Assembly (NCBI RefSeq): GCF_964204645.1
Contig: NC_134033.1
Span: 9,494,655 to 9,558,654 of the forward strand
DNA length: 64,000 bases
Source: Tubulanus polymorphus
Taxonomy: Eukaryota; Animalia; Nemertea
Reading direction: 5' to 3'
Below the pieces are notes generated by a model. The model saw nothing but the letters and a program-made list of their open reading frames with translations, ran no database searches and was not told the origin of the DNA. This document shows, one piece after another, positions 670 to 55,975 of this stretch; the stretch's first letter is position 1; every line of letters starts with the position of its first letter. Made by a program: the position numbers and the translations under genes.

Positions 670-699
670 AAATATAAAGTTAAAATTAAGGATATATAA

Positions 700-1797
700 A
701 TGAGTGGTAAAAAAACTCCTAATACTAAAGAACAATATTTAAGAAATTTATATTACAACCCTGAGAGTTCGGTTGCTTATTCTTCTACTAAAAATATATG
801 GCGTAAAGTAAAACAAGATAAATTAGATAAGATAATCCCACAAAATTTAGTTAAATATAAAGATATAAATGAATTTATGTTAGAACAACCAACGTATACA
901 ACACATAAAAAAATTGTTAGAAAATATAAAACTCGTAAAACTATGGTAAGTTATGTAGATCAACAGTGGCAAGGAGATTTAATTGATATGAAAAATCTTA
1001 AAAAAGATAATGATGATTATTGGTGGATATTGAATATAATTGATATTTTTAGTCGTTATGTATGGAGCTTCCCACTTTATAGAAAAGATGCTGCACAAAC
1101 ATCACATGTTTTAAGAAAATTTCTTTCAGGTGGTAAACTAAAACCAGAAAAAATTCAATTTGATAATGGAAAAGAATTTGATAATTCATTAGTTCATGGA
1201 CTTTTAGATTTTCATAATATTAAATATTTTTCAACAAAATCGGATAAAAAAGCAGCAGTTGTTGAACGATTTAATAGAACATTAAGAACAAGAATGTGGA
1301 AATATTTTACAGCAAATAATACTTTTAAATGGATTGATGTTTTACCAAAATTGATAGAAGGATATAATAATTCTTATCATTCTTCTATTGGAATGAAACA
1401 TATTGATGCTAGAAAACCTGAAAATGCTGAAATTGTTTGGAATAATTTATATGGAGCATTTCTTGTAGATGATTTTGGTGAACCTAAATTTAAAGTTGGT
1501 CAAAATGTTAGAATTTCTAAGTATAAAAAGATATTTGACAAAGGATACGATCGAAATTTTACTAGGGAAATATATAAAATAAAAAAGGTAATAACAACAA
1601 AACCATATGTCTATAGATTAGAAGATTTAGATGGTGAAGAAGTTGATGGATATTTTTACGAAGAAGAATTAAGTTTAACTACTGAAAATCTAGAACAAGA
1701 ATATAAAATTGAAAAAGTACTAAAAACAAAAACTGTTAAAAGAAAAAAATATTCTTTAGTAAAATGGGTTGGATGGCCAGATAAATTCAATGAATAG
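700..1797 (+). CDS. Retroviral-like (rve) integrase with C-terminal chromodomain; premature TAG removes last ~10 codons
   Basis: WQGDLID, IIDIFSRY, IQFDNGKEF, AAVVERFNRTL (DDE core); YKIEKVL..LVKWVGWP chromodomain; frame continues past TAG 1795-1797 to TAA 1825-1827. Confidence 0.95.
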   Translation: MSGKKTPNTKEQYLRNLYYNPESSVAYSSTKNIWRKVKQDKLDKIIPQNLVKYKDINEFMLEQPTYTTHKKIVRKYKTRKTMVSYVDQQWQGDLIDMKNLKKDNDDYWWILNIIDIFSRYVWSFPLYRKDAAQTSHVLRKFLSGGKLKPEKIQFDNGKEFDNSLVHGLLDFHNIKYFSTKSDKKAAVVERFNRTLRTRMWKYFTANNTFKWIDVLPKLIEGYNNSYHSSIGMKHIDARKPENAEIVWNNLYGAFLVDDFGEPKFKVGQNVRISKYKKIFDKGYDRNFTREIYKIKKVITTKPYVYRLEDLDGEEVDGYFYEEELSLTTENLEQEYKIEKVLKTKTVKRKKYSLVKWVGWPDKFNE

Positions 1798-1827
1798 ATA
1801 TTATCAAGTAAAATTAAAAATATATAA

Positions 1828-2436
1828 ATGAATAAGGAATTATTTATATTTGAGCCTCATAATATGTTAATTTCTGGTGTAACAAATTGTGGAAAAACTT
1901 ATTTTATATTAAATTTATTAGAAACTGTTTACAAAAACTATTTTGATAATATAGTATTATTTTGTCCAACATATGAATTTAATCAAACTTATGATAGAAA
2001 CATTACTAGAAATAATAAATTTATTATATTAGATCCTAAAACAGTAAAAGAAAATTTAGATAATTGTATTAAAATAGCAATTGATATTTATAAAGGATCA
2101 AATACATTATTCATTATAGATGATTGTGCTAATCTACATGATTCAAAAGTTAGAGAAAGTGAGTTATGCTATTTAGCTTTCTCTGGGAGACATTTTGGGA
2201 TAACAACTTGGGTTTTAAATCAAAAATATAATTCAATTGTTAAAGACTTTAGAGAAAACATTAGATTTCTAGTTTTATTCTACAATAAAGATAGAAAATC
2301 GATGAAAAATGCACTCGAGGAAAATGATATTATTCCACATGATTTACATAATGAATATATGGATGAGTTGAAAAATATTAAAAGATCAAAATTACTATTT
2401 AGATTACAACACCCATTTAAATATGAATTTATTTAA
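1828..2436 (+). CDS. A32-like (FtsK/HerA) DNA packaging ATPase
   Basis: Walker A SGVTNCGKT, Walker B LFIIDD, GRHFGITTWVLNQ motif. Confidence 0.92.
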   Translation: MNKELFIFEPHNMLISGVTNCGKTYFILNLLETVYKNYFDNIVLFCPTYEFNQTYDRNITRNNKFIILDPKTVKENLDNCIKIAIDIYKGSNTLFIIDDCANLHDSKVRESELCYLAFSGRHFGITTWVLNQKYNSIVKDFRENIRFLVLFYNKDRKSMKNALEENDIIPHDLHNEYMDELKNIKRSKLLFRLQHPFKYEFI

Positions 2437-2439
2437 ATT

Positions 2440-2690
2440 CAATTAGTTTGTTAATCTAGTTGAATTCTAGTTATTAGTAGTTGTAACAAAAATCCAAAAA
2501 TCAAATAGATTTAACAATATTTTAACTAGCTTGTTAATCTATTTTAATTCTAGTTACATTCTAGTTGAATTCTAGTTGTTAGTAGTTGAAACAAAAATCA
2601 ACTAGATTTAACAATATTTCAACTAGCTTGTTAATCTAGTTGAATTCTAGTTACATTCTAGTTAAATTCTAGTTGCAACATCACACAACT
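2440..2690. repeat. Intergenic array of CTAGTTGAATTCTAGTT-type short repeats and imperfect palindromes
   Basis: Repeated ctagtt/gaattc words; ~100-bp direct repeat (about 2490-2560 vs 2593-2660); hairpin caactagatttaacaa...ttgttaatctagttg at about 2599-2642. Confidence 0.8.
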
Positions 2691-2708
2691 AATTTTTTTG
2701 TTATATAA

Positions 2709-3308
2709 ATGGTAGGTGAAAAGAAAATAAAATCTAAAAATGTTCCAATTGAAAAAACTTTAGATGATTTAGGAATAACAGAAAACAAATTAATTCCAGA
2801 TGATGGTGCTTTAAATAATGTTACAACAAATAATAATTATGAATATTATCTTTATTGTAAACATCAATTAGAAATATTAATAGCATCTGGAAAATGTAAA
2901 AATTTAGTCGGTAAAAATTTAACTTATAATGAATTAGATACAATGAAATCAGATGAAATTATTAGATTATTTAAGATTTATGAAGCCGCGAGAACAGCTA
3001 GAATTAATGACGCGATATCAGAAAATGTAGTAAAAGGTTATAGTAAATTATGTAATTATATACTACCAATTGAAGATGAAAATAGATTATATTCCGATTT
3101 AAAAAATGATTATTTAGTTATGACTGAATTAAATAAATGGATTGGATATTTATCATTTCAATTAGGCGGATTTATGACATTATTATCAACTGGGGTTATA
3201 ACATTTTCAAATATTGAAAGTAAAAATATTTCTATAATAAATGAGCGAGGTGAAAGAAGTGAAGGAATTAACTGTGAAGAAAAAACCGAGAACTCAGAAA
3301 CAAATTGA
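2709..3308 (+). CDS. Polinton hypothetical protein
   Basis: 199-aa ORF, TAAATG start, viral base composition, hydrophobic segment near C-terminus. Confidence 0.7.
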   Translation: MVGEKKIKSKNVPIEKTLDDLGITENKLIPDDGALNNVTTNNNYEYYLYCKHQLEILIASGKCKNLVGKNLTYNELDTMKSDEIIRLFKIYEAARTARINDAISENVVKGYSKLCNYILPIEDENRLYSDLKNDYLVMTELNKWIGYLSFQLGGFMTLLSTGVITFSNIESKNISIINERGERSEGINCEEKTENSETN

Positions 3309-3609
3309 ATGGTCTCGACAATTAGGAATTAAATCACAAGAATATAAAAAAGCTGTAAAAGAAAAAATAAGTAATAAAAATGTTAATAAAAATGGTGAAA
3401 ATATTGTTATTTCTACTCCTTCTGATAGTAGAATATTTGATAAATATTTATATTTTACAGTTGGATTTGTAATTGTATTCATTTTGATTGGGTGTAATTG
3501 GTATAAGAAATCAAATAAAATTCATGATATTAGTAATTCTGAAACAACTGCTATCAAAAATGAAAATACTTCTGAAATTCCAAAATTGATAATAAAAAAA
3601 ATGGATTAA
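3241..3609 (+). CDS. Polinton small membrane protein (basic N-terminus, one TM helix)
   Basis: TAAATG start; YLYFTVGFVIVFILIGC hydrophobic stretch. Confidence 0.7.
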   Translation: MSEVKEVKELTVKKKPRTQKQIEWSRQLGIKSQEYKKAVKEKISNKNVNKNGENIVISTPSDSRIFDKYLYFTVGFVIVFILIGCNWYKKSNKIHDISNSETTAIKNENTSEIPKLIIKKMD

Positions 3610-4583
3610 TATTTTAGAAAAAAAGCAAAAAAAAATAATCGAATATCTCACTACTTTTGTCTATCTATGCGGAGCAATTAAATTGTCCAGATAAGTCATT
3701 TCGGATTCTAGATATTCATTATTTTTATTAATTTATTTTGTTTTTATTTGAATATTTGAATTTGTTAAACAATTAACATAGTAATTGATTACTAATTTGA
3801 TTAAAAATTATATCATAATGAAGTTAAAAATACATAATTCATTTATCAGTTTTCATTCTTACATTCTTTTCATTCGGAATAATTTATAATTTCAAATTTC
3901 ACATATTTTTTTAGCACCAACAACATTTACTTAGGTGTTTTAGCTAAGTATATAAGGCAATTCATTCAACCACTGGAGTAGCTCTGGCCAGCAGAGGCAT
4001 TTTGAAAATGCACCTTCGTCCACTCTCCGGGTTTCTCCTTCGGTTTCGAATTTCGAGGTTGGTAGAAATTACATTAGGCGCCTTTAATATAATGTGATTT
4101 CTACCAATCATTGAAGGAGATCCCGGTTGACGTGGGTCTCCGGGGGTGTAAGTAGAAATGACGGGGGATAAGCGTCCCGTGGCGCCTTTCAATAATGGGA
4201 TGCTTATCCCCTGAAAACTCTGTAGGTCGAGGATAGGGCAATTTTGCTAAAACTTACCGTAAAAACATTGAAATATTCCTTTTAATCACGAGAGAATGAT
4301 GACTATCCTCCTGTCGTCACGGCCGAGCTAATTTAAATAAACCTCGTTTTCAGCAACTAATGAAAACGCAGTAATTCAATACCAGCTAACTGGCTTGTGT
4401 GTGTTGTATGTACTGCGTGCTTATTATAACAACAACGTTGTGCAACACCTGTTTGATTAATCAATATTCAAATGAAGCACTCTCTTATAATAATATGTAA
4501 CAGATGTACTGTATGATTGTAGTTGTTTATAAAACGACTAAGGTCATTTTGGATTCTAGATATTCATTATTTTTATTTTTTAT

Positions 4584-4910
4584 TTAATCAACAATTTCTA
4601 AATCATGATGACCGTCTTCATTTTTCCCATGATATATTATTTTAAATCCTACTAAATCTTTCAATTCCTCCATACTCAATGAAACCCATTTATCGGGTAA
4701 AAACACTTTAAATTCTCGTGATGTACTAACATTACAGTAGCTTAAATTAGCTGATACTTTCTCTCCATATTTAGTTTTTATCTTTTCTAATTTCAATATT
4801 TTATGTTCAATTTCTTTTGTAACATCAACTAACTTTTTTATTTCAAATTGTTTTTTTGTTGGTTTTATTCTGTTATTTATTGTTGCTAAGAATGCTTTTC
4901 TATCTCCCAT
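4584..4910 (-). CDS. Small conserved Polinton protein, homolog of 53383-53736 (possibly nucleic-acid binding)
   Basis: Shares KKL..., TKYGEK/NKYGDK, FLPDK/YLPDR and YHGKNEDGHHDLE/YKGKNEKGHHEID with the copy D ORF. Confidence 0.75.
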   Translation of the reverse strand: MGDRKAFLATINNRIKPTKKQFEIKKLVDVTKEIEHKILKLEKIKTKYGEKVSANLSYCNVSTSREFKVFLPDKWVSLSMEELKDLVGFKIIYHGKNEDGHHDLEIVD

Positions 4911-5173
4911 TTATTAGGAAAAAAAATTACTTGTGGTGATGAGTGGTGTCTCGTCCTCTGATCTGAAAACGCCATCTTCTAATTACTCATGTCAATAACC
5001 ATGAGTACGCACCAGTATTTACTGACGCATCCTCCCTCGGCAGGGATTCCAACCTGATGGCATCGCTACACTCAGCCACGACACGAACCCCTGCCACACT
5101 AGACTGGGTGCTCAGGTACATGCGCAGCTTTGCCGCACGAAAACCTGCGGCACCAATCATATTGCTCGTTGTG

Positions 5174-5522
5174 AGTAAGTGAAAGTTGGGGGTTTCATAC
5201 CAGGGGCACAAGGCACGAGGCTAGGTAGGTTTTTGGGTAAAAATGTTGGGTAAAATATATTGGGTAATTTTTTTCTATATAAATGGGAGATAAAAATACA
5301 AGTAAAAATGTTGATAAAAATAGAATATTTTGCAAATATTTGTGATACATATGTCAGTAAATCGAATATATCGCATCATGATAAATCACGTCAACATCAG
5401 AAAAATGTAATTGATGTTGAAAAAATTGATACAGATGAAAAAATTTAAAAAAAAACAGATTCTATTAAACTGAATGACATTTATTGCAATATTTGTGATG
5501 AATATATTTAAAAAAAGAACTA
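5174..5522 (+). pseudogene. Polinton copy B stub: terminal motif plus decayed zinc-finger N-terminus of pPolB (ATG 5283)
   Basis: Starts AGTAAG..GGTTTCATACCAGGGG; SHHDKSRQHQKNVID and YCNICDEYI.KKNY match SHHEKSSNHIKNVID and KCEVCNEFIVKRNY at the start of copy C pPolB; cut at TA|CAGT 5521-5526. Confidence 0.75.
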
Positions 5523-10177: not shown

Positions 10178-10950
10178 CTAGGGGTCCAGGGACACCATGC
10201 CCACTTGGGAAGTGGTTTCAAATGCTCAACAATCTAACAATTTCAATATTCAACGCCCCCTGGTGACCATATACAAAAACCAATGACCTTGAAACTAACC
10301 ACAATCATAGAACATGTCAGCAGCTACGATTTTGTAATTGACTGTGATAACAAAATAAGCCTCGTTACCAATTTAATATGGAAATACTAAGTTATTCAAC
10401 TATTCAACGCCCCCTGGTGACCATATTCAAAACCCAATGTCCTTGAAACTCACCACAATCATTGAACATGTCATGAGCCAAGCTACAACTTTGCAATTGT
10501 TCATGGTAACAAAATATGCCTAGGTACCAATATAATAAGGAAATACTTAGTTATTCTATTATTCAACGCCCCTAGTGGCCATATAGAATAACTAATGTCC
10601 TTGAAACTCACCACAATCATAGACGATGTCATGAGCTACAAATTTGCAATTGATTGTGCTAATAAAATATGCATTGGTACAAATATAATATAGAAATACT
10701 AAGATATTGTATTATTCAACGCCCCCCTGGTGGCAATATACAAAAACCAATGACCTCGAAACTCACCACAATCATAGAACACGTTATAAGCTAGAACTTT
10801 CTAATTCATTGTGGTAACAAAATATGCTAAGGTATCAAGATAATGTCGAAAAACATTTTCCCACCTACGAATGAGTACTGATGACACCAAGATGGCCGCC
10901 AATTGCGTCATAATTGGCTGATCAAAAATACCTAACCCAGGTATAAAACT
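10178..10950 (-). mobile_element. Helentron-associated (HINE/DINE-1-like) non-autonomous element, family 1, 5'-truncated, four ~155-bp internal repeats
   Basis: Same sequence as 38258-39290, 46552-47740 and 61664-63073; abuts Polinton copy C at a deletion junction. Confidence 0.75.
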
Positions 10951-11120
10951 GATAAAGTAACTGCTAATGTTAATTTTAAGATATCATTTATATCAAATCT
11001 ATCAACATTAACACTTCCCATTTTGAATACTTTTTTTAATACCATTGAATAACCAACAGTTCCAACTGATAGTAATGCTCCATTATATAATCCAGTTATT
11101 ATCCACTTATTATCACTCAT
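10951..11120 (-). pseudogene. Small hydrophobic Polinton protein, 3'-truncated (intact at 54866-55087)
   Basis: Near-identical to the copy D gene up to LAVTLS, then joins HINE sequence. Confidence 0.8.
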
Positions 11121-11477
11121 TTATTTATCAAAAAAATTACTATCTTCAAAATATTTAGTTATCTTAGTGATGATTAATTCAACATTTATTTCATTACTAG
11201 TTTGATTTGTATATATTTCAATTATTATTTTTTTAATATCATCGATGAAAAAATCTTCACCTAATTCATAAAATCTTAAAGATTCTCTAATTAAATTAGT
11301 AATCTTTTCTACATTAAAAGTTTCTTTATCTATTGTTTTTTCATACTCAAATGTTGTTTCATTAGAAAATGTAATATTTTTGATATGTGTAATTACATCA
11401 TTAATGTTAAATTTCATTTCTTTCTCACGTTTAAAATCAAATCCAAAACATATACTCGGTCCAACAGTTATATTCAT
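11121..11477 (-). CDS. Polinton hypothetical protein (homolog of 54523-54858)
   Basis: MNITVGPSICFGFDFK...NEINVELII shared by both copies. Confidence 0.75.
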   Translation of the reverse strand: MNITVGPSICFGFDFKREKEMKFNINDVITHIKNITFSNETTFEYEKTIDKETFNVEKITNLIRESLRFYELGEDFFIDDIKKIIIEIYTNQTSNEINVELIITKITKYFEDSNFFDK

Positions 11478-11493
11478 TTATATAATGAAAAAA

Positions 11494-12241
11494 TTACTCT
11501 CTACATCTTATAAATAATTCATATATCACAGGAAAGTTATTCAAATTAATTAAATAACCATTATGATTTCTTATTTCTAATCTAAAATTATTAAAATGTG
11601 GAATACAAGGTTTGAAATCACATTCAGTTAAATTATAATTTATTTGAGTTCCAAATTGTTTGACAATGGTAAAATATTAATAAACCAGAATTACAAATTG
11701 TATCTTTAGTTGCTTCGAATGTTTTTGTAGGATCAATTAAATTACAATAAATATAGTAGTGCGTAAAAGGTATTATATTTGGTGTAGTATAAACATTTGA
11801 ATAAAGTATATTTGGATTAACTCCTAGCATTTTAGCTAATGGTTTTCTTACTGCGAATTTATATTGTTCATTGGTTAAATTTATTCCTATTTTATTAGTA
11901 CTATCAATTTTATTAAATTTAATGTTAAAATTGGAATCACCTCTAATTTGTATTCGTGCTTTTCTATTAATTTCTTGAGCTAATGTTTCTAAATTATATT
12001 ATCCTGGTGTTAGCATAAGTTGAACCCATTTATGATTATTTTTATTAAAAATTAAGAAGACTCTATGGTCATTAGTTTTATCTGATACATTATAAAAAGA
12101 GTTACATAAACTTATATTTACTAATTTCAAATCTACACAATTCTTAAATTCTCTATCTAATTGTACTAATAAATTATGAGATTTATAATTTGTAAGTCTT
12201 CTAGAATCAACAAATATTCTGCATTCTTTTAATTCTACCAT
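11494..12241 (-). pseudogene. Minor capsid (penton-like) protein, frameshifted
   Basis: Fragments 11999-12241 and 11633-11830 plus C-terminal FRLEIRNHNGYLINLNNFPVIY; homolog at 53754-54505. Confidence 0.65.
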
Positions 12242-12299
12242 TATTTATAACATAAAAAAATTACCACTCATCACCACAAGTAATTTTTTTCCCTAATAA

Positions 12300-13575
12300 A
12301 TGGATGAGAAGATACCATGTGAAATTTGTGGTGAACTTCTAAGAAAAAGTAATATGGCTCGACATATGAAAAAACATGATGAAAATTATAAACCCCCTAA
12401 ACTAAACTGTCCAAAATGTAATAAATAATTCTCAAGAAATTATGTTAAAAAACATTCAGAGAAGTGTAAAATTAATGGCGCAACGGCTAATGTTGATAGT
12501 AATGAAAGAAATAGTAATTCTGCTGAAGTTGAACCTGAAGTTATTTGGAAAAGTCCTTTCTTATTCTATGATAAGGATAATATAAAAGATTATTTCTGTG
12601 AGCCTTGTCTAATGAAATATAGCCCTGAAAATATAGAAGATTGGGAGAATCATCAATTTCGTAAAGCACATATAGATAAAATTTCTAATAAATTTGAAAC
12701 TGAATTCAATGAAAGAAAAAATAATTTATTAGAAAAAATAAAATATGAGAAAACGTTACCAGATAATAAAGAAACATTTGAAAAGTTAGAAAAACAATAT
12801 AATGAATTAACAAGAAAAACATATTATTGTAAATATTGTAAATTGATTATTACAACAAGTAATTCAAATCTACATAATAGAACAATAAAACATAAAGAAA
12901 ACGTAAGAAAATACCAGGAGCTTAATGAAGATCTATTACCAATAAATTATAAACGAAAATGTCCACAATGTAGTTATGCGACCTTAAGGCAAGAAGGTAC
13001 TGTGTTATTTTGTAATGAATGTGGATGGCAAAAGAATTTATGGAGTGAAGAAAAAACTAGAAATTTTCTCATAGATCCAAAATTAAATTATCTAGATGAA
13101 ATTTTTAAAATATTTTCTATAGAAGATCATACACCAGAATATATGCAATGGCTTAAAAAAATGAAAATAATAGAAAATAAAAATGGTGAAATAACTAAAA
13201 AAGATATTATAAAAACAATTATTCCGTCAACATTTAACACAAAACAAAAGAAAATGTATTAAAAAATATAAAAAAAATATTCAAACAAATATTAATGTAT
13301 CATTTGGAAAATAGAATAACAGATCAATAAATTATGAATTCTTTTTAAATAAGATTGTAAATTATTTAAACATAGATATTATAATTCCATGTGATGAATT
13401 AACAAACAAAAAGAAACAAAGAGAGCGAGATGAAATGTGGCGCAAGATAGAACTTTATTTAAATAAGAAAAATGAAAAGGAAGAAGAACCTAAACAAATT
13501 ATACAAGAACAATTAAATGAAAATGAAGAAGCCAATAGTGATTTCGATTATGATGATATTGATTTCATGTTTTAA
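12300..13575 (+). pseudogene. Zinc-finger protein fused to a poxvirus VLTF-3 (A2)-like late transcription factor domain; one nonsense codon and three small indels
   Basis: ATG 12300 is in frame with ORF 12612-13262 across TAA 12426-12428; CPQC..FCNECG ribbon, NFLIDPKLNYLDEIF; after frame repair IFKQILMYHLENRITDQINYEFFLNKI...RDEMWRKI; acidic tail; stop 13573-13575. Confidence 0.7.
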
Positions 13576-16500
13576 TGTCCATAAGGTAATGTTTTTATAC
13601 CATCATCTGAAATATGTCTTTTATCATCAAATGGATTTAAACTAGTTTTTTCAACTTCATTAATATACATCTCGTGATCTTCTGATCTTAAACAATTCAT
13701 TTTGTGTTTCATTACAATTGAGTTATATAAACACTTTATATAATCTTGAAATTCTATATGTTTATCAACCACATGTTTTGTTATTCCTTTTAACTTTTTA
13801 GCTTCATGATCTTTTGTTCTATAACTGTACATTTTACTTCTTATCCCAACAAATTCAATCATTTCATCACCCCCTAATTCATCTTTAAACTTACCAGGAA
13901 TCTTTTTTTTATCATTGCTAAATAGTTCATGATCTTTGGGATAATTGCTAAAATCAAAATGATTTTTTAATGTTTTTAAGTCTTTTGTTATGTCATTTGT
14001 CTTGATTTTTAGTATGTACGCGTCAGTATTGAAGCAAATTAATGGAAATCCACAGTTAAATGTACCATCTTCAGTTGATAAATCATAAACATAATCTGAT
14101 GGGTTATATATTTCAAATAAATCTTTAACTTCTTCAGTTAAATCTTTTTCTGTGTGGCTTAGATTAAAGCAATTTGGTTTAGATTTAATCAATCCAATAT
14201 TCATATTGAAGCCTAATGAATTACATAATATATTTAACCCTGATATAGCAACTTTTCCTTTCTGTGCAAAGGTTATCTTTTTATCCTTTGTAAATTTTTT
14301 AGCACCTTCTGCTGCATAGAATCCAATGAAGAACCATTTTCTTAAATTATTTTTTGCATTTAATACATAATCTGGAACTATCTTTTCTTTTGTTGAAGTA
14401 TTACTTTTCACTATTGCATGAATATAGAATTTATCATTATATTTTATAGCAAAATCTTTAGGATTATTTACAAGTAGTCTATAAACTGCTGATGATTTCA
14501 TAACATCCATGATTCTAAATGTTTTATGTGAATAAACTTCTTCACAGAATTTCTTAATTCTTTCTAATAATTTTAAGTCTTGATTGCATAAATACCAACA
14601 ATATTTATTACCCCAAACATAATTATACACACCTGCTCAACCATCACCCATGAAAAATCCTTTGATAAAATATTCTTTTTCTTCTAATGTTTCGGGTTCT
14701 ATATTATAAATATTATCAATTATTTCATCAAATGACATATGATTCATTCTTTGGAAAAATCTTTTATGTAATAATTCATCTCCAATTTTTATATCAGTTG
14801 GTTTTATTTCATCGCCATTTCGTTTAATTAAACTATGATCTTCTGTAACATCTACAAATCCTAATTTAGTTCTAACTCTATAGATTTTCTAATTTGTTTT
14901 ATGCCTTATAATATTCTTTAATTTTTTCCATCCATTTCTTGTCCAAACATCCATTAATCCATTTATTTGTATTAATTCTTTTTCACCATATGAAATATAA
15001 CATTCATTTTGTTTTGGAATTATTTCTGAAATTCTTCTTACCAATATTTTATTATTACATTTTAATAATATTGGGGTGTCAGCTGTTACAGAATCAAAAT
15101 ATAATATTTCAATATGCTTTTCCCCAAAAAGTGGTTGTAAAACATTATAATAAAAATCATACATTAATAATTTTGATACTTCTAAAACAGTTGAACCAAT
15201 AAATATAGGTTTATCAAATTTCATTGACGTTCTTTTTAATTTAACTGCTGTTAAATAATCTTCAAATCTTTTATTTCCTAAATGTCTAGGATTGTAAATG
15301 TCTTAATCTTTCAGAATTATTTACTAATTCAATATCATTTCTATTTCTAATATTTTCACATGTTTTACCATAAAAACTATTAATCATTAATTTGAAGAAA
15401 TCTTTTTCAAAATCTGTTTTAGATATGGTTCTCTGTTGAGTATTGAAATCTATATATTTTTCTAACCACTTTGATTGATTAAATTCAATATATCTATGTA
15501 CTTTCTTTAATTTCATTCCTTGTTTTAGATAAAATTTTAACATTCTATAATGAACAATATAATTGTATTTATTATTTTGAGTAAGTATTAATTTTTCTGT
15601 AAAAACATGATCTTTCGGTTTTATTTTCTTCTGGTATTCACTTAAATAACTATCATCTACAGTTAAATGTTCTGGGCAATAAGGTAAGTTTCTTGTTTTA
15701 AACTTTATTTTTTCAGGATATTCTAAATCAACTACAAAGAAATAACCAATTGGTGCTTCATCATTTTAAACTCGCAATTGCGCTTTCCCAATCAGTTTTA
15801 TCATCATTTTCAACTTCTGTTAATATAAAATTTTTATATGGTTGAGGTTGCATCATTGCCCAGCCATATAAATTATTGGCGTCAATATATAATAATTTAT
15901 ATTCATCATTTGCTTTAAAATATCTATCTCCCATAACACCACTAATTCCACCTCTAATTGATTTTTCAAATAATAAAACCATATCTGGTTCTTTTAATAA
16001 ATCTAATTCTACATTTGTATATTTTAAACCACATTGCCAGGTTAAACCAGGACTTGAATAACAATAACAAGGATCAACATTAAAATGATTTAAATTAACT
16101 TCTCTAAATTTTTCAAATATGTCAGCCAATATCATAACATCTGATTTAAAATATAAATCAACTAATTCACCATGATTTTTCATCTTAAAATGGTTCCAAA
16201 TATTTAATGTTCTATTAAACAGTTCATCTTTCACATACTCCTCTTTTAATTGATCATAAAATTGATCTTTTAATAATTCTGTTACATTAAAATCATTGTG
16301 TGTTTTATAAAATGAATAAGGAATTGCGCCTTTATATCTCAATAATTTAAAATCTTGGTCATTTGGATAATAATATCGAGTTATAACAAAATCATTATCA
16401 ACTAAACTTTTTGATAAATTATCTAATGAACTTGCTAGAAATCTATAAGAATCTAAAAATCTAATGCAACCAAATTGAAATGAAATGTAATTTTCAGATG

Positions 16501-18632
16501 TTTTAGCTAATAGTTTAAAATCATATTTTCTTACATTTACACCATTCATAGCATTATATTCTTCTATTTCTTGATTAATTGAACCCAATTTCCTTGATAA
16601 TTGTTTTATAAATAGATGGGTATCATAACCTGATAAATTATGAAATAATATTGGCACGAAATTAACTTTCTTAGCTTGTAAATTGCAATCTTCATGAGCA
16701 GCTCCACGATATTTTGAATTTAAATGATCATGATCTCTAACTTTTTTATCAAATGAATAAAAACGTTTTTCACAATAACAACAATGAGTTGCATAATTAA
16801 AATCAATTTCATCTTCTTTTGTCATAACTATTCTTTTATTTTTGTTTAATAATTTTGCAAAATCACTTTCTAATTCAATCATTTTATCACAAAAATCATT
16901 AACTACATTTTCACCTCTAAAAGAAATATATTGACTTTCATATAATTCAGGATAATTTCATTTTATATAAATTCCATAAGCAGCAGCTCTTTGATGAACT
17001 TTTTTAATTGTATTTATAATTGGTGGGTCTTGTATTGTGTCTTCATTAAATTCATTTCCTTTATCCATTGATTTTAATAATTGTTTTTTGTTATATATTT
17101 CTTTTCTATCTTGATCAGTTAATTCTTTATTCAACGATTCAAAATCCCCATAAATTACAAATGGAACAATATTCTTAAATTTATGATTAGTAAATTTCAA
17201 TTCATAATCTTTTTCTGTTGGCATTATTAATTTACAAAAATCTTTATTATCACATAATTCTTTATGTTTTAATAATGTATTCTCTGTCATAAATTTAGAT
17301 AAACATTTTCTACATAGATAAATTCTATGATGATGATCACTTTCTGTTCTAAAGAATAAATCAATTTGTTTTAACCACATATAATGTTCATTTTCATCTT
17401 TTTTGTAATATAACAAATCTATAGCATTTTCATCATCATAATATTCTGTTAAATATAAAGCTTCCAATGTATAATCTTTAATATTTTCACCTTTTGTCTT
17501 TGGTAATTGCATTAATTCAAATACATTTATTTTTAAATTATTAACTTTTTCTATTTTAGGAATCATTTTTATAGTTACTGGATATTGATCAATTTTATAT
17601 AATGTTTCATATTTCCGGAAATTTGTTATTCTAAAACTATGCGTCATATCTTCTGTTGGGTGTAAACAACTAATAATTGACCATAGAAAACATTTATTAT
17701 CTTCATTTTGAACATTTATTACTGCTTTTGTTGTAAATGGTAATTTAATATAAGATGATGCTTTAATATCCTTTTCTGTTGTAAAGTTTGAATCATTTTT
17801 AAACATTTTATTACTTTTTGATGTTTTATTCCTTTTTGTATTGTAAACATTTAAATCTAAATATATAATTTCATTCAATGTTAAGCCAGAACCCTCAAAA
17901 TATCTTTCTTCAATATGACGTTAAAATTCATAAAATATTTTTTCTAACTTCTCTTTTATTTGCGTTTTTGAAATTATTTCTTCAGAGAGTGTTTGAATAT
18001 TATAATCCATTTTTTCTTCTGACTTTATAAAACTTACTTTCCCAGAGATACTAATTTTTGGATATTCAACATCTGTTATCAAATCTAGTATTTTTTCTAT
18101 TTTTTCATTAAATTTACTATAATCTTCTATTGTTGTACCTTTAAAAAATCTAAATATAATAGCCGCAGGACCAATTTTACTATGTAATGTTTCTAAAATT
18201 TCAATTGTATCTTTTATTTCTAGTGAATCAATATAATTTCTAACATTTTCCATGTAAGGTTTATTTGAAATGGATTTAGTTTTTGAATTTGTTTTTTTTT
18301 ACTTTTTGAGGTTTATCGTTAAAATAATCTTTTCCTAAAACATTATTACTCAAATTTTGGTGGTGTTTTTGTGATTCGAGATGTCTATTATAATTCCTTT
18401 TTACTATAAATTCATTACAGACTTCACATTTTATTTCATCCACATTCATATTTTCTAATCGTTCTTTTCTTTCATTGGAATTTTCTGAAGTTTCAAAATC
18501 TATAACATTTTTTATATGATTTGAAGATTTTTCATGATGCGATTTTTGAGATTAATCAATGTATTTTTTACAATATGGACAATAATATTGATTTTCATTT
18601 ACATCAATTAGTTCTGTCTTATTCTCTTCCAT
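13572..18632 (-). pseudogene. Protein-primed family B DNA polymerase (pPolB), intein-containing, several stops and frameshifts
   Basis: N-terminal zinc fingers; YGDFES, FHNLSGYD, FLDSYRF exonuclease motifs; DANNLYGWAM, KLMINSFYGK, YFD|TD, KLKGI polymerase motifs; RDHDHL..YRGAAHEDCNL endonuclease VII-like insert. Confidence 0.95.
14028..15092 (-). mobile_element. Intein with LAGLIDADG homing endonuclease in pPolB motif C (1065 bp, 355 codons, two in-frame stops)
   Basis: Block A SVTADTPILL, block B VTEDHSL, FIKGFFMGDG and FFIGFYAAEG, block F YVYDLSTEDGTF, C-terminus ICFN|T; absent from copy D (YFDTDS). Confidence 0.93.
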
Positions 18633-18689
18633 TTATAAGGAAAAAAAATTGCTTGTGGTGATGAGTGGGGATTACTTCCCCTTGTATAT

Positions 18690-18915: not shown

Positions 18916-19520
18916 ATGAGTGGTGTCTCAACCTCTCAACCTCTGGTATGAAAGCCCACTTTTCCAATTACTTGCACGTACCCACGTAGGGGGATGGGGG
19001 TTTTAGAAATCCGTACAGGGGGAGGGCAGGGGTGAGCTCAAAGTGTACATACTTCTCTCAAGGGGGGGGTGGGTTATAGTACGTAATTAGTGCACGAAAC
19101 ACAATAGGCCTATGATTTTTACAAATATCCCGTATATTTGTTGGGATTTCCTGGGAATCCCCCCGTCTCGGTCTTTCACTTTGTCGATTCGGTAGGCCTA
19201 CATCGTCATCGGATCTCTAATGAATGCTGGTGATTTTTTACCATGGATCCTGAAAAATTCACTTTTACAGGGAGGGGGGTCATTCATAGAAGTATGACGC
19301 CAGCAGGGTTACAAAAAAAAAAACGTACAGAGAGCGTACATGGTGGGAGGGTTAAAATACCCGGAAGTCAAGCTTACACGTTTTATGCACGGCCTCTAGG
19401 CCTAAATAGGACCGATATTATTTGATTTTAATTTAGCTCCATGGCCTAGGTATATTAGGTTGGGCATACAGCTCACTTGCGCGAGAATATAGGCCTACCA
19501 GACACTGATATCTTTCTTAA

Positions 19521-21912: not shown

Positions 21913-21913
<1 letters not shown>

Positions 21914-35335: not shown

Positions 35336-35344
35336 CTTCCTTAA

Positions 35345-41545: not shown

Positions 41546-41613
41546 ATTATGGGTTGAACAGTACAAACCCGACATCACTTCGATGTAGGCCTACAGAGCT
41601 ACCCTTCAGTACA

Positions 41614-46105: not shown

Positions 46106-46109
46106 GTGG

Positions 46110-46462: not shown

Positions 46463-46551
46463 AACATGTAAAAATGTTTGAAGTAATAAAGTATAAAAAT
46501 GATAATATTCTTTTAAAAAGAAATCTTCTGGATTAGCTTTCAAATGATTTT

Positions 46552-48967: not shown

Positions 48968-49155
48968 AGTAATAGGGATAACAGGCTTTCATACCAAAGG
49001 TCGAAGGGTCGAGCTCGTAAAAAATTAAAATAATAATAATTTACAGTTGAATTAGTAGCGCACACTCCTAATTCAACTGTAAATTATTGTTATTTTCATT
49101 TTTTACTCACTCGCCCCTTCAACCTTTGATATGAAAGCCTATTATCCCTATTACT
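48968..49155. repeat. 188-bp near-perfect palindrome at the left end of Polinton copy D
   Basis: AGTAATAGGGATAACAGGCTTTCATACCAAAGG ... CCTTTGATATGAAAGCCTATTATCCCTATTACT; inner stem aataatttacagttgaattag/ctaattcaactgtaaattatt. Confidence 0.92.
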
Positions 49156-49429
49156 CTTAAAATATTCATATATATGAATAAAATATAAATGAATAACATA
49201 TATAAGTAACGAGTAATTAACAAGCTCTTATAGAATAGATATATAGATAGATATATTTACAACATTATTTCAATATTCATATTTGTATAAGTTAGATTTT
49301 TAAACATTAAAAGTGTTAGTAAAGTGTGATTGAAATAATGCATAGCTGTTTATACTAGAACATGATTCTATTTGAGCCTATATATCATTGAACTTCTAAA
49401 ATCAATTAAAAAAAAAAATTAGTATTAAA

Positions 49430-52400
49430 ATGGAAGCAAATAAGTACTACTGTCCAACATGTAATATCAATATAGATAAATCCCAAAAAGCACGACACAA
49501 TAAAACTAAAACACATTTAGAGAATAAATTGAAACTAGAATATGAAGATGATATATTAGAAACTAAATTAAATGAATTAAAGAATGAAAAAGAAACATAC
49601 AAATGTGATACATGTAATCAATCATTCAGTGATAAAAGATATTATAAAGAACATTTAAAATCTAAAAGTCATATTAGAAATAAGAATAATGATATTTTAG
49701 GTGAAGATTATTTTGATGAAGATAATGATAAGAAACAGAAGACAATTAAAAGCATAAAAAATAAATTAAACAATAAAAGACCATACATGGAAGATGTAAG
49801 AAAATATATTAATTCATTAGATAATAAAAAAGATATAGAGATAACCGAAGCATTTAAAAGTGATATTGGCCCAACAGCTATCGAGTTTAAATTTCATAAA
49901 GGAAAAACATTTAGAAAATATGAAAGAAATAATAAAAATAATTACTGATGTTGAATATCCTAAAATTAGTATATCTTTAAAGTAAAGTTTATAAAATCTG
50001 AAGATAAACCAATATATAATATAAATTCTCATTCACAACATATTATTTTAAAACAACATATAGATGATAAATTAGATAAATATTATAATGAAGTAAAAAC
50101 TAAAATAGAAGAGAAATATTTTTAAGGATCTGGTTTAATATTTGATGAGATAATATTTATGACTTTACATGTTTATAACACAAAATATAATAAGTTAACT
50201 AAATCAAAACCAATTGATGAAAATAATGTATCATATTATAAAGAACAAGATATTGAAGCATCGAGTTATATTATACTACCATTTAAAACTAATGCTGTTA
50301 TAAATGTACAAAATGAAGATGATAAATGTTTTCTATGGGCTATAATAAGTTGCTTACACCCAACAGAAGATATTACACATAGTTTTAGATTAACAAATTA
50401 TAAACCATTTGAAAATAATTATAAGATAGATAAGTGTCCTGTTATAATTAAAAACATCCCAAAGATAGAAAGAGATAATAATTTAAGAATAAATGTATTT
50501 GATTTAATCAAATTACCAAATACAAAAGGTAACAATATAAAACATTATACATTAGAACCTTTATACCTATCAAATGATTATGATTCAAACGATGTTATAG
50601 ATATACTATATTATGAGAATCATTATATGTGGATTAAACAAATAGATTTATTCTTTAGAACAGAAAGTGATAACCATAATAAAATATCTCTATGTAGAAA
50701 ATGTTTACATAGATTCAGTAATGAAAGTACATTATTAAATCATAAACAATTATGTGAAAATCATGATTATTGTAAATTAGTTTTACCAAATGAAAAGGAT
50801 AAAATATTAGAATTCAAAAAATATGATTACAAAAATAAAGTTCCATTTGTTATATATGGAGATTTTGAATCATTAAATAAAGAATTAACTGATCAAGATA
50901 GAAAAGAAATATATTATAAAAGAAAGAAATTAAATTCTAATGAAAATGATTTTTCAGATGAACCACCAATAACAAATACAATTAAAAAGATTCATCAATC
51001 AGCTGCTGCTTTCGGGTTATATATTAAATCTGATTATCCAGAACTTATTAAAAGTGAATTATAAAATTATAATGACAGAAGAAGATAAAGAAGCATTTGA
51101 GTTTTCAGATAAATGTTATTATTGTGAAAAGATATTTAATTATAAAGATAAAACAGTAAGAGACCGTGATCATTTGAATGAAAAGTTTAGAGGCGCTGCG
51201 CATGAGAATTGTAACTTACAAGCTAAGAAAATTAATTTTGTACCAGTTATATTTCATAATCTATCAGGATATGATGCACGTTTATTCATCAAACAGTTAT
51301 GCCATAAAATAGAAGAAATTAATAATGAAATAGAAAGATTAAATTCGAATAGATCAAAAGATAAAATACCAACTTATAAATTTAGAATGTTAGCTAAAAC
51401 ATCTGAGAATTATATATCATTCCAAATTGGTTGCCTAAGATTTATAGATTCATATAGATTTTTAAATAGTTCATTAGATAACTTATCAAATTCATTAGTT
51501 GATGATGAATTAAAAATATTAAAGCAACACTACCCAAATAATGATGATTTTCAATTAATGAGATATAAAGGAGCAATTCCATATTCTTTCTATAAAAATC
51601 ATAATGATTTTAACATAACTGAATTATTGAAAGAACAATTCTATGATGAATTAAAAAATGAATATGTTAAAGATGAAGTCTATCATAGAACATTGAATAT
51701 TTGGATTCATTTCAAAATAGAAAATCATGGACAATTAGTAGATTTATATTTAAAATCAGATGTATTATTATTATCGGATATATTCGAAAGGTTTAGAGAT
51801 GTAAACCTAAAATATTTTAATATTGATCCATGTCATTGTTATTCATCACCAGGTTTAACATGGGATTGTGGATTAAAATTTACAGATATAAAAATGGATT
51901 TGTTAACAAATATAGATCAATTACTATTATTTTAAAAATCTATAAGAGGAGGAGTTTCAGGTGTATTAGCGGATAGATATTTCAATGTAAATGATAACCC
52001 TGGATATAAGTTATTATATATAGATGCAAATAATTTGTATGGTTGGGCAATGATGGAACCACAACCTTATGGAGTATTTGAAATAAGTGAAGTTTTACAG
52101 AATGAAAATAATGATAAATTTGATTGGAAGAAAAGAATCCTAGATATTGCAGATGATTCAGATACTGGTTACTTTATTGTTGTAGATTTAGAATATCCTG
52201 AAGATAAAAAATTTAAATCTAGAAATCTAGCTTACTGTCCCGAACATAAAACTGTAACTCATGAAGAATTATCAAATTACCAAAAAAGAATTAAACCCGA
52301 AAATCATATTCATACAGAAAAGTTAATGGTAACTCAAGAAAATAAATATAATTATGTAGTACATTATAGAATGTTAACGTTTTATCTAAAACAAGGAATG

Positions 52401-53353
52401 GTTCTAAAAAAAGTACATAGATATATTTCATTCAGTCACTCTAAATGGTTAGAAAAATATATAGATTTTAACACCAAACAGAGAACTGAAGCTAAAACTG
52501 ATTTCGAAAAAGATTTCTTCAAGTTAATGAATAATGCATTCTATGGAAAAACTTGTGAAAATATTAGAAATAGAAATGATATTGAGTTAGTCAGTAATGG
52601 TAAAAGGATAAGACATTTACAAACATATCCTAAGTTCATTGGTAACAGAATATTTGATGAAAATTTAGCTGCAGTTAAGATGAGAAGAACATCAATGAAA
52701 TTTAATAAACCAATCTATGTTGGCGCTTCAGTTTTAGAATTATCAAAATTACTAATGTATGAATTCTATTATAATGTATTACAACCTCATTTTAGAGAAA
52801 AACATATAGAAATATTATATTTTGATACCGATTCTTACATATTAAAGATAAAAACTGATAACATAACAGATGATTTAAAAACATTAAAACATCATTATGA
52901 TTTCAGTAATTATCCTAAAGATCATGAATTGTTTAGCAATGATAATAAAAAAGTTCCAGGGAAGTTTAAGGATGAATTAGTTGGTGAAGAAATGATTGAA
53001 TTGGTATTAGATCTAAAATGTATTCATATAAAACTAAAACTCATGAAGCTAAAAAGTTAAAAGGAATAACCAAAAGTGTAGTAGAAAAGAATATTCATTT
53101 CAAAGATTATATCAATTGTATATGCAAAGAAGAAGTTAGAAAACATAAGATGAGATGTTTAAGATCTGAAGATCATGAAATATTTATTGAAGAAATTGAA
53201 AAGATAAGTCTAAACCCATTTGATGATAAAAGATATATTTTAGATGATGGAATTCATACAGTTGCTTATGGTTGTAATTTAGATGAATACTTAAAATTTA
53301 AAAGAGAAGAAACAAAAGAGAACGAGATAATGAAAAGAATTCTAACGTGTTAA
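49430..53353 (+). pseudogene. pPolB, intein-free allele, fragmented
   Basis: Same motifs as copy C, with uninterrupted YFDTDSY; split into five ORF-track fragments. Confidence 0.95.
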
Positions 53354-53382
53354 TCAAATTTTAATAAAAATATGTATTATAA

Positions 53383-53736
53383 ATGGAGAGTAAACAAACA
53401 CACAGTGAGAACAACAAATTATTTCTAGATAGAATAAAAGATACTTCAAATGTCAAATCAGTAGATTATAAATTTAAGAAGTTAACAGAATTAACAATCC
53501 ATAAGAAATATCTAATTACAGATATTGTTACGGTTACTAACAAATATGGAGATAAATTAGTTATACACTTAGAATATGAAGGATTAAAAGGAAATACATA
53601 TAAATTCAGAACATATTTACCGGATAGATTTCATAGATTATCAAGTGAAGATTTAGAAGAATTATGTTCTGGAGATTTCTATTTCGTATACAAAGGTAAG
53701 AATGAAAAAGGGCACCATGAAATAGATTTCGAATAA
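53383..53736 (+). CDS. Small conserved Polinton protein (homolog of 4584-4910)
   Basis: Shared motifs with the copy A gene; TATAAATG start. Confidence 0.75.
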   Translation: MESKQTHSENNKLFLDRIKDTSNVKSVDYKFKKLTELTIHKKYLITDIVTVTNKYGDKLVIHLEYEGLKGNTYKFRTYLPDRFHRLSSEDLEELCSGDFYFVYKGKNEKGHHEIDFE

Positions 53737-53753
53737 GAACATATGTAAAATAA

Positions 53754-54505
53754 ATGGTAGAATTAAAAGAATACATGATATTTGTTGATTCTAGAAGGCT
53801 TACAAATTATAAATCTCATAATTTACTAGTACAATTAGATAGAGATTTCAAGAATTGTGTTGATTTAAAATTAGTTAATATAAGTTTATGTAATTCTTTT
53901 TATAATATATCGAATAAAACTATTGAACATAGAGCCTTTTTAGTTTTTAATAGACACATAGATTCATATATTTAAAACCGGGGTTATATAATTTAGATAC
54001 ATTAGCACAAGAAATTAATAGAAAAGCCTGGCACAAATTAGGTAGTAGTTCTGGGTTTAGTATTAGATTTTTTAAAAGTGATAGTTCTGATAGGATAAAG
54101 AAAAGGTTGTCTAATAGTGAAAAACATAAATTTATGGTAAAAAAACCTATAGCTAAACTGTTAGGAATTCTTCCAGATAGATCTTTTACAAATATTGACG
54201 CTACTACACCAAACTTAATACCTTACACACATTTCTATATTTATTGCAATTTAATCGATCCTACAAAAACATTCGAAGCAACTAAAGATATAACTTGTAA
54301 TTCTGGTTTACTAAACATTTTACCATTGAAGAATGTTAAAGAATTTGGAACGCAAATAAATTATAATTTAACAGAATGTGATTTCAAACCATGCATTCCT
54401 CGTTTTAATAATTTTAGATTAGAAATTAGAAATCATAATGGGCACTTAATTGATTTAAATAATTTCCCTGTAATTTATGAATCAGTTATAAGATGTAGAG
54501 AGTAA
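53754..54505 (+). pseudogene. Minor capsid (penton-like) protein, disrupted
   Basis: IFVDSR, SFYNIS, PGLYNLDTL, FYIYCNLI, FRLEIRN..G.LIDLNN.PV pattern typical of Polinton minor capsids. Confidence 0.65.
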
Positions 54506-54522
54506 TTTTTTTCACTATATAA

Positions 54523-54858
54523 ATGAATATAACTGTTGGACCGAGTATATGTTTTGGGTTTGATTTTAAACATGGTAAAGAAATGAGAATTAAACTAAAT
54601 GACGTAGTTACTGATATAAAAAGTAAATCATTTAACAATGCAACAATGATTAATAAAGAAAATTATAATATAGAAAAAGTAATTGATTTAATTAAATCAC
54701 CTTTAGAATATTATGAATTAAATGAAGATGGAATTATTGATGATATTAAAAACATATTAACCAAAATATATGATAATCATAAAAGTAGTAATGAAATAAA
54801 TGTTGAATTAATCATAAATAAGTTAACTAAACATTTTGATGATAGTAATTTTTTTTGA
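54523..54858 (+). CDS. Polinton hypothetical protein
   Basis: Homolog of 11121-11477. Confidence 0.75.
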   Translation: MNITVGPSICFGFDFKHGKEMRIKLNDVVTDIKSKSFNNATMINKENYNIEKVIDLIKSPLEYYELNEDGIIDDIKNILTKIYDNHKSSNEINVELIINKLTKHFDDSNFF

Positions 54859-54865
54859 TAAATAA

Positions 54866-55087
54866 ATGAGTGATAATAAGTGGATAATAACTGGATTATA
54901 TAATGGAGCATTACTATCAGTTGGAACTGTTGGTTATTCAATGGTATTAAAAAAAGTATTCAAAATGGGAAGTGTTAATGTTGATAGATTTGATATCAAT
55001 GATATTTTAAAATTAACATTAGCAGTTACTTTATCTAATTTAACTATTGATTATTTGGAAAAACAAAAATATATTCCTCCCATATAA
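54866..55087 (+). CDS. Small hydrophobic Polinton protein
   Basis: 73 aa, two hydrophobic helices, conserved in copy C. Confidence 0.75.
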   Translation: MSDNKWIITGLYNGALLSVGTVGYSMVLKKVFKMGSVNVDRFDINDILKLTLAVTLSNLTIDYLEKQKYIPPI

Positions 55088-55111
55088 ATACATAATTATT
55101 TTACTAAATAA

Positions 55112-55534
55112 ATGGCTTCTGCAGTTATAACTATTATAGGATCGGCAATTGTTAACGCTTTAGCATTTACTGGGGGCGGTTATTTATTTAAGCATATTGA
55201 TAGAAATGGATCATTAACAGAACAAAAAAGACATAACTTAGCATTAGAGAAATACAATAAAGCAGCAGAAGAATATAGAGAAAAGAGGCAAAACTATATG
55301 GATTATATTAACAAGGAATTATATGATCAGAAGATTTCACATAGAGATTTTCAATCAGTTGATGATGCAATGAGTTTATATAACGCGGTAACCAATAAAG
55401 AAAAATTACATCTACATAAACCTACAATATCAGATTATTATACCCCAAGTAATGAACAGAAGAAATATGAAATAATATGGATTTTAGGTGGAACAGTTAT
55501 TGTTATATTTGTTGCTTATAAGTTTACTAATTAG
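55112..55534 (+). CDS. Conserved Polinton protein with hydrophobic termini and a coiled region
   Basis: MASAVITIIGSAIVNALAFTGG...EQKRHNLALEK; C-terminal TM; TAAATG start. Confidence 0.75.
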   Translation: MASAVITIIGSAIVNALAFTGGGYLFKHIDRNGSLTEQKRHNLALEKYNKAAEEYREKRQNYMDYINKELYDQKISHRDFQSVDDAMSLYNAVTNKEKLHLHKPTISDYYTPSNEQKKYEIIWILGGTVIVIFVAYKFTN

Positions 55535-55553
55535 TAATTTTTTTGCTAAATAA

Positions 55554-55975
55554 ATGGATGATAAAGTTGATAATATTGATATCATTCCTCATGATATAAA
55601 TAAAACTAAATTAAAAATATATTTAGAAAAACAAATATTAGAATTTGAAAATGATTTAAAAGTTAAAAAGAAAAAATATTTAAAATCTAAAATTATATAT
55701 TATTTGATTATAAGTGGTTCGGTTACAATTAGTTCTGTAATAACATTTCTAGCAATATTCAGCCCATTAACACCTTTAGCTATATCAATTGGTGTATTAG
55801 GATTAAGTTCAAGTGTTTTAACTGGTATAAGTTCAAAATTAAATATAAAAAGTAATAAAGAAAAAAATTAACTAATATAAAAGAAATTAATAAATTAAAG
55901 AATACACTAGATTATATAATAAGTTTAAATGGTCATATAACAGTTGAAGAACAAGATAAATTATTAAAAGAAATT
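55554..55975 (+). pseudogene. Two-TM Polinton protein, probably frameshifted near 55865
   Basis: ORF 55554-55871 with two hydrophobic helices; coding-like continuation after an A-run. Confidence 0.6.

Follow-up and report, generated by a model that had tools for sequence, protein, structure and literature searches.

A 64,000-nt stretch of the genome of the nemertean Tubulanus polymorphus (NC_134033.1, positions 9,494,655 to 9,558,654; hereafter the window) carries decayed pieces of a Polinton, and nearly every gene of this element starts in TAAATG, in most cases behind a run of T that ends 5-7 nt upstream. The motif is real and well supported at the sequence level. Its parts, i.e., the T-run, the 5-7 nt spacer and TAAATG, probably represent late promoters of the poxvirus type, and the Polinton would then be a virophage-like satellite that uses the pox-type late machinery of a helper virus. 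This bears on how animal Polintons are transcribed, as autonomous viruses or as satellites; the satellite lifestyle is so far known from single-celled hosts.

The 18 starts listed in the initial annotation of this DNA, which are those of the Polinton genes with a 5' end inside the window, were re-read. In agreement with that list, 16 consist of TAA directly followed by ATG, the start at 49430 is TAAAATG, and that at 12241 is TAAATAATG; the motif is missing at the start of the fucosyltransferase gene FUT (9751, minus strand) and at the two piggyBac starts (28044 and 36585). A tblastn comparison of 551 open reading frames (ORFs) from 87 related loci with the window revealed no additional Polinton gene with its 5' end there; the capsid start lies outside the window, and the start of the c3 gene is deleted. 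TAAATG occupies 16/18 starts, compared to 47/833 other ATGs in the same AT-rich regions. Internal in-frame ATGs, which had been suggested as the control, are invalid for this purpose, as a TAA preceding them would be a stop. When the first ATGs after a stop in the same regions are used instead (47/570), the proposed enrichment of TAA before ATG is clear (p ~6e-16), and TAG and TGA, which directly precede 14 and 13 of these 570 controls, precede none of the 18 starts. The starts are not independent, because two of the Polinton fragments (B and C) are paralogues and the starts at 4910 (minus), 12300 (plus) and 18632 (minus) carry a duplicated upstream block of 41-47 bp; after a pessimistic collapse of related starts, TAAATG is still found at 9/11 (p 8e-9). 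A run of six to eight T ending 5-7 nt before TAAAT is present at 11/18 starts, namely the eight at which it had been noted and those at 11120, 18632 and 54866. Among TAAATG sites, it accompanies 10/16 at starts and 1/47 elsewhere (p 6e-7). The duplicated block (4903-4947, 12263-12310 and 18622-18668) holds a complete promoter before three unrelated genes, and promoters therefore appear to move as cassettes.

Both parts of the motif are kept in related elements with 46-82% ATPase identity and 20-45% GC. Relatives were collected with an ATPase alignment (the best 80 of 241 metagenomic relatives plus four from genome contigs) and grouped on a motif-labelled tree, so that the grouping is not blind; from a second tree, whose labels were drawn partly from the clades, the support values only were used. 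Near-duplicates (L009, L027, L030, L045, L060, L069, L075) and the loci L001-L003, L019, L056 and L087 were left out of the groups. The motif is nearly all-or-none per locus (L029 11/11, L034 9/9, L032 8/8 and L004 9/10; L026 0/11, L025 0/10 and L078 0/7), and its state on the 80-row ATPase tree changes 8 times, compared to 26.2 times after shuffling (0/500). In the clade of the window (support 98/92, 14 loci), TAAATG stands at 42/46 starts versus 5.9% of control ATGs; similarly, in a second clade (support 100/100, 20 loci, approximately 45-51% identity to the window ATPase), it stands at 90/95 starts versus 5.6%, which gives 132/141 for the two clades pooled. The T fraction peaks at positions -14 to -12, with 76/61/83% in the first clade and 87/71/72% in the second, and T-run and TAAATG occur together at 28/46 and 70/95 starts, respectively, versus 0.5% and 0.8% of the controls. 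TAAATG holds at 38-45% GC (L032 8/8, L038 6/6, L016 2/2), and it is found at 0/4 starts of an AT-rich sister (L022, 20% GC). In L016 and L017, the divergent ATPase and integrase genes start on one 10-bp palindrome, CATTTAAATG, with 4 nt between the ATGs (L016:1429-1434, L017:1019-1024), and this palindrome gives TAAATG on both strands. The nearest relative, L004, encodes a deoxynucleoside kinase (10343-10981, minus strand, 110 bits), whose start has T-run and TAAATG. TAAATG also stands at 7/7 starts of L003, a separate, protease-bearing Polinton lineage, in which a protease-like domain is fused to an rve integrase and a chromodomain (L003:2740-4248).

In vaccinia virus, the TAAAT(G/A) of late promoters is preceded, at a distance of 5-7 bp, by a core that contains T (PMC5294985). 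A T located ten nt ahead of TAAAT is conserved in them and missing from intermediate promoters (PMC11980589), and a 5' poly(A) leader arises by slippage on TAAAT (PMC4542343). The conserved T corresponds to -13 from the ATG, i.e., the centre of the Polinton T peak. The likeness to the poxvirus late initiator pointed out in the initial annotation is consequently borne out, and it is closer than claimed, as the T core and its spacing match too. In the window, TAAAT(G/A) lies over the start codon as TAAATG in 16/18 cases and as TAAATA in one, and the T core lies 5-7 bp upstream in 11/18. The same features, a TAAAT(G) over the start codon and a T-rich core peaking near -13, are described for vaccinia and chordopoxvirus late promoters (PMC5294985, PMC11980589, PMC4542343), and the rare TAAATA variant and promoters inside neighbouring genes are vaccinia-like as well. 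Unlike in vaccinia, the motif sits on an integrating Polinton of the 15-20 kb class in which no RNA polymerase was found, and it stands, as read from the sequence, at nearly all genes, those for replication included.

The T-run had been taken for the poxvirus early terminator, TTTTTNT. This is not supported, because the run keeps a fixed position 5-7 nt before TAAAT and is also present at genes without an upstream gene on the same strand; in addition, TTTTTNT follows only 22/151 stops within 100 nt. The run is better read as the counterpart of the vaccinia late-promoter core. Depletion of TTTTTNT in coding DNA (observed/expected 0.34) was considered as terminator avoidance and rejected, as A7 is equally depleted (0.35), a sign of generic homopolymer avoidance. 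It is very unlikely that the motif is no promoter at all and arises, in a compact and AT-rich genome, from translation context, from coupling of stop and start codons or from the poly(A) signal of the preceding gene. In fact, the TAA at 11120 is the stop of the upstream gene, as is the TAA at 13/146 TAAATG starts in relatives, and AATAAA is formed at 42/146; on the other hand, 133/146 starts are uncoupled, TAG or TGA precedes the ATG at only 1/160 starts, divergent first genes carry TAAATG, and the T-run keeps its upstream spacing. T at -3 is a disfavoured Kozak base, which speaks against translation context, and the rarity of TAAATG in seven other Polinton loci found by their PolB, AT-rich lineages included (1/74 starts), speaks against an effect of a compact AT-rich genome. 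Neither composition nor stop-start coupling, poly(A) signals or Kozak context accounts for the motif.

A satellite could also depend on a helper that is not pox-like and whose start signal is of the AAA type, such as a relative of the iridoviruses or some other nucleocytovirus; we consider this unlikely. TAAATG stands at 34/108 iridovirus-like starts (eight loci; 10 duplicate loci of 41 were dropped) and at 84/370 in more distant relatives, AATAAATG is found at 8/16 window starts, and iridovirus-like particles have been reported in marine worms (PMC5923455). The iridovirus-like word, however, is AATAAA at variable distance, found within 12 nt of the ATG at 74/108 genes (L215-L227), and 33 of the 34 TAAATG are AATAAATG, a form taken by only 14/42 and 14/90 TAAATG starts in the two Polinton clades. 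At -15 to -12, the T fraction of the iridovirus-like loci is 0.36, without a peak, compared to 0.73 in the Polinton clades and 0.80 in the window. The starts of the window's clade differ from the iridovirus start, i.e., AATAAA 0-4 nt before the ATG and no T core. This pattern fits a different sister clade (L028, L049, L053, L055, L058, L059 and L061; support 99/97), in which AATAAA lies beside the ATG at 17/19 starts without a T peak. The available text of two reviews (PMC5294985, PMC5923455) holds no description of AATAAA as a start word of iridoviruses. The comparison arose from a motif scan of viral contigs, which returned mostly chance matches (95/121 loci without a TAAATG start) and yielded L115. 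Scans of viral contigs with the ATPase, the ATPase alignment and the capsid alignment revealed no relative, and a sigma-70 scan remained at background (60 vs 70.4).

In three sister groups without TAAATG, TATA lies within 20 nt of the ATG, at 26/31 starts versus 8% (a group that includes loci of 47-49% GC), 8/10 and 22/29, and in L092 at 13/15; the TATA-type sisters are the ATPase-family loci L020-L026, L035, L040 and L067-L082, together with L088 and L092. This TATA is not a TATA box, because it is too close to the ATG, and it resembles the late initiator TA(+1)TA of African swine fever virus (PMC7163114); intergenic composition may contribute to the signal in AT-rich loci. In a high-GC group, none of the three motifs is prominent (0, 0 and 3 of 21). 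These observations bear on the reading that the motif is a compact core promoter independent of any helper, served by host RNA polymerase II, perhaps with an element-encoded zinc-finger or VLTF3-like factor, its pox likeness being convergent or a relic. We consider this quite improbable. It would accommodate the tens of host copies (see below), which require nuclear activity, and the zinc-finger and VLTF3-like proteins encoded by the element, and some Polinton-like viruses (PLVs), such as TsV-N1, are autonomous (PMC11296320). Nevertheless, TATAAA abutting an ATG cannot serve as the TATA box of the same gene, since a TATA box lies 25-30 nt upstream of the start (PMC5294985); VLTF3 is not core to the clade; and the switching of whole elements among three motifs, each like that of another large-virus group, is unexpected for promoters read by the host. 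AATAAA is not depleted in coding regions (51 in 13,065 nt, observed/expected 0.97), a weak point against polymerase II, as the host control is too small (3 observed, 2.3 expected).

A strict RNA polymerase catalytic motif was found neither in the window nor in 85 family loci, none of which is a proven complete element. The promoters would therefore need a polymerase from outside. That the element brings an RNA polymerase of its own and lives independently in the cytoplasm is hardly credible. The yeast pGKL elements are of this kind, with a pox-related polymerase, TAAAAT as the initiator and leaders made by slippage (PMC6831550), but the family loci without the catalytic motif include contigs of 11-12 kb that cover most of the gene set. 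In the favoured model of a satellite with a pox-type helper, the integrated provirus would not be transcribed in the nucleus. Once the helper infects the cell, its late factors and RNA polymerase would bind to the T core and initiate in AAA, where slippage would add a 5' poly(A) leader; with this leader, the mRNA would have an A at -3 and no longer the unfavourable T. The entire gene set, with pPolB (the protein-primed PolB) and integrase, would be expressed in the cytoplasm as one late class. The helper would be a co-infecting, pox-type large DNA virus, not necessarily a member of the Poxviridae.

In the initial annotation, a pox-like helper had also been argued from the VLTF3-like gene and the intein; this part of its case is not supported. 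The C-terminal part of the gene at 12300 matches Pox_VLTF3 with 24.2 bits, below the cut-off of 25, which is a weak match to a domain that is nonetheless real; VLTF3 does not belong to the core genes of the window's clade, and its presence in polintoviruses is already published (PMC11131425). The intein (34.9 bits, cut-off 35.8) is real, and the best 120 of its longer relatives belong to other pPolBs and to family-B polymerases, a mimivirus polymerase (37%) included; two of its relatives, compared with the Protein Data Bank (PDB), are Pol-delta-like and T4-like. Both genes suggest contact with large DNA viruses, not with poxviruses in particular. The intein is present in pPolB copy B and not in copy C, and the same motif-C site is occupied in other pPolBs (63% and 48%); its kin at motif C are also found in giant-virus-like and T4-like PolBs, at up to approximately 40%. 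This distribution suggests homing across polymerase classes.

The proposal of a satellite of a pox-like large virus remains the best reading, with a motif that is closer to the poxvirus signal than had been claimed, and several points weigh against it. The integrase and ATPase starts of the window are without a T-run. A full VLTF3 occurs in a TATA-type relative (L070), and in L004 the matching gene lacks VLTF3; the intein relatives examined include mimivirus-like and T4-like polymerases, and none is pox-like. The comparison with poxviruses uses published consensus statements, and a motif that is short and AT-rich may have arisen by convergence. Poxviruses are not alone in having TAAATG, as the iridovirus-like loci demonstrate, and in linear elements of yeast TAAAAT serves as the initiator, with slippage (PMC6831550). 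What the sequences show is the motif with the distance between its parts, the conservation of both in two clades, the fold of the capsid, the genes for integrase, ATPase and pPolB, the many host copies and the switching of the motif between lineages; initiation in AAA, the poly(A) leader and helper dependence are predicted. Neither a transcript of the element nor a helper virus was found in this host: a search for RNA data that contain 53300-56200 gave none, and a sequencing run presumed to be RNA matched a host repeat only, in a comparison that left out fragments A and B and carries no weight on expression. Finally, the satellite model does not account for the nuclear steps that are required for integration and for a rise to tens of copies.

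A broader and more tentative proposal, which we regard as possible but doubtful, is that one widespread Polinton family without a protease is made up of endogenous satellites that exploit large DNA viruses of animals, and that its members have changed helpers by rewriting all their promoters. The T-core TAAATG of the worm element and the two clades would then correspond to a pox-type helper, TATA to an asfarvirus-type helper and AATAAA to an iridovirus-type helper. If this is true, the motif would predict that marine lophotrochozoans have a pox-type virus not yet described, and that animals possess a virophage-like defence that can be induced.

The window contains three decayed Polinton fragments (A, B and C) and one stub, which lie in AT-rich islands (24% GC; approximately 1-3730, 4540-5460, 10930-18660 and 49200-56224) within host-like DNA (39% GC); their features are given in Table 1. 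The islands hold the end of a capsid protein gene, an rve integrase, an A32 ATPase, two broken pPolBs, a PolB stub and small conserved ORFs. The hallmarks of Polintons, i.e., pPolB, rve integrase, A32 packaging ATPase and double-jelly-roll capsid, are thus present, the capsid fold being taken from the L004 orthologue, whose model is a double jelly roll (pLDDT 89.6; Foldseek E 2e-16 to the SGIV and PBCV-1 capsids); a sequence search of the PDB with the capsid profile gave zero matches. The adenain cysteine protease is likely missing from this family, as protease-like ORFs of L001 and L002 match neither the window nor the ATPase-family loci, which are fragments, and match only L003. Fragments B and C are 73-83% identical. 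An AG-starting motif upstream of three PolB starts (4 matches in the window, 0 in 100 shuffles) is probably the left terminus of the element; Polintons as a class are bounded by terminal inverted repeats with AG ends and a 6-bp target duplication. In a whole-genome shotgun run with the same species label (85% likeness), the depth of fragment C is mostly approximately 530-960 (range 330-1240), compared to approximately 16-19 in nearby bins (44467-45867), and the Polinton family therefore has tens of copies in the host. A further Polinton piece lies at the right edge (63913-64000; c3 gene, 79% to L004). Between fragments A and B, FUT, a GT11 fucosyltransferase gene, forms a single ORF (8750-9751, minus strand) with host-like GC and a motif-free start. 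Satellite arrays with units of 154 bp and 31 bp occupy 57444-59663 and 59787-61380 onward, and an inversion interrupts the 154-bp array.

Table 1. Polinton features of the window, in window coordinates (T7-N6-TAAATG: seven T, six nt, TAAATG)
Feature	Position	Strand	Remarks
Fragment A double-jelly-roll major capsid protein, C-terminal half	1..669	+	75% to L008 capsid; start beyond window edge
rve integrase, TAAATG start without T-run	697..1797	+	ORF 700-1797, PF00665 39.6 bits
A32 packaging ATPase, TAAATG start without T-run	1825..2436	+	PF04665
T7-N6-TAAATG, putative late-type promoter (by sequence), conserved ORF c1 (2709-3308)	2693..2711	+	
TAAATG start, ORF 3241-3609, within c1 3' end	3238..3243	+	
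T8-N5-TAAATG, start 4910	4908..4926	-	in block common to 12300 (+) and 18632 (-)
Putative left terminus motif, AG-starting, upstream of pPolB stub	5174..5201	+	
T7-N5-TAAATG, pPolB N-terminal stub (fourth copy)	5268..5285	+	71% nt identity to 18647-18491
T7-N6-TAAATG of c5	11118..11136	-	TAA doubles as stop of upstream ORF 11121-11477
T6-N7-TAAATG of c71	11475..11493	-	
T7-N6-TAAATAATG, variant start of c15	12239..12260	-	back to back with 12300 promoter
T7-N6-TAAATG, zinc-finger/VLTF3-like gene	12284..12302	+	
Broken zinc-finger gene: CX2CX13CX2C ribbon, VLTF3-like C-terminal part	12300..13575	+	Pox_VLTF3 E 3e-5
Fragment B pPolB, broken by stops and frameshifts	13572..18632	-	DNA_pol_B_2
LAGLIDADG intein at PolB motif C, broken by two stops	14031..15089	-	
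T8-N5-TAAATG, fragment B pPolB	18630..18648	-	
Putative left terminus motif, fragment B	18945..18972	-	
Putative left terminus, fragment C, second motif copy inverted	48968..49155	+	
Fragment C pPolB, TAAAATG variant start, broken, no intein	49426..53353	+	DNA_pol_B_2
TAAATG of c72	53380..53385	+	
TAAATG of c15	53751..53756	+	
T7-N7-TAAATG of c71	54506..54525	+	
T8-N6-TAAATG of c5	54849..54868	+	
T4-N6-TAAATG of c8	55099..55114	+	
T7-N6-TAAATG of c74	55538..55556	+	

Promoter sharing between satellites and giant viruses in protists is known already, as are PLVs associated with entomopoxviruses (PMC11296320). An earlier report of the TAAATG/T-run motif in Polintons was not found in the literature searched, most subscription journals and Repbase lying outside its scope. 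The word promoter does not occur in the available text of 10.64898/2026.10.13.758929, 10.1101/2024.03.23.586382, 10.64898/2026.06.19.733378, PMC11131425 and PMC8502044, and PMC11464507, in its available part, concerns mimivirus motifs. No virion of an animal Polinton has been observed so far, according to 10.64898/2026.06.19.733378. The clade-wide match to both parts of the vaccinia late promoter names the kind of helper to seek, and the motif offers a way of pairing Polintons with helper lineages from sequence, as for protist virophages. If the pox-type reading is true, pox-type viruses are implied in hosts where our searches found none; a literature search for pox-like viruses of marine invertebrates returned unrelated matches only.

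Among the known systems, mavirus and the EMALEs carry a pPolB and an rve integrase, and pGKL is not known to have a capsid. The window's Polinton shares with pGKL an AT-rich linear element and a TAAA(A)T initiator, which in pGKL gives pox-type slippage poly(A) leaders; unlike the Polinton, pGKL encodes its own polymerase and capping enzyme and is not integrated (PMC6831550). With the Maverick-Polintons and adintoviruses (Polintoviricetes; PMC8502044, PMC11131425, 10.64898/2026.06.19.733378), it has in common pPolB, rve integrase, A32 ATPase and double-jelly-roll capsid, as well as sporadic VLTF3 and multiple copies in an animal genome; it differs from adintoviruses in that no adenain protease was found in its family. 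The available parts of this literature describe no promoter motif, and the seven other Polinton loci rarely have TAAATG (1/74). The animal PLVs AHEV_PLV1/2 and CBEV_PLV1 are likewise proposed as hyperparasites of poxviruses, on the evidence of co-purification and gene exchange, PLVs co-occurring with entomopoxvirus occlusion bodies (PMC11296320). They are compared here by description: AHEV_PLV1 has a cysteine protease, two of the three use a primase-helicase and a tyrosine recombinase, and the main text of that paper, as available, makes no mention of promoter, motif or TAAAT (PMC11296320). The precedent for the satellite mechanism is given by mavirus and the EMALEs, in which the motifs correspond to late promoters of the helper and change from type to type: mavirus carries the late motif (TCTA) of Cafeteria roenbergensis virus, and EMALE types differ in their motif (PMC8547959). 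As in the Polinton, an integrated, capsid-encoding element has one motif that matches the late promoter of a large virus; unlike in mavirus and the EMALEs, the host is an animal, the element is a Polinton and not of the virophage lineage, and the motif is of the pox type and not of the Mimiviridae type.

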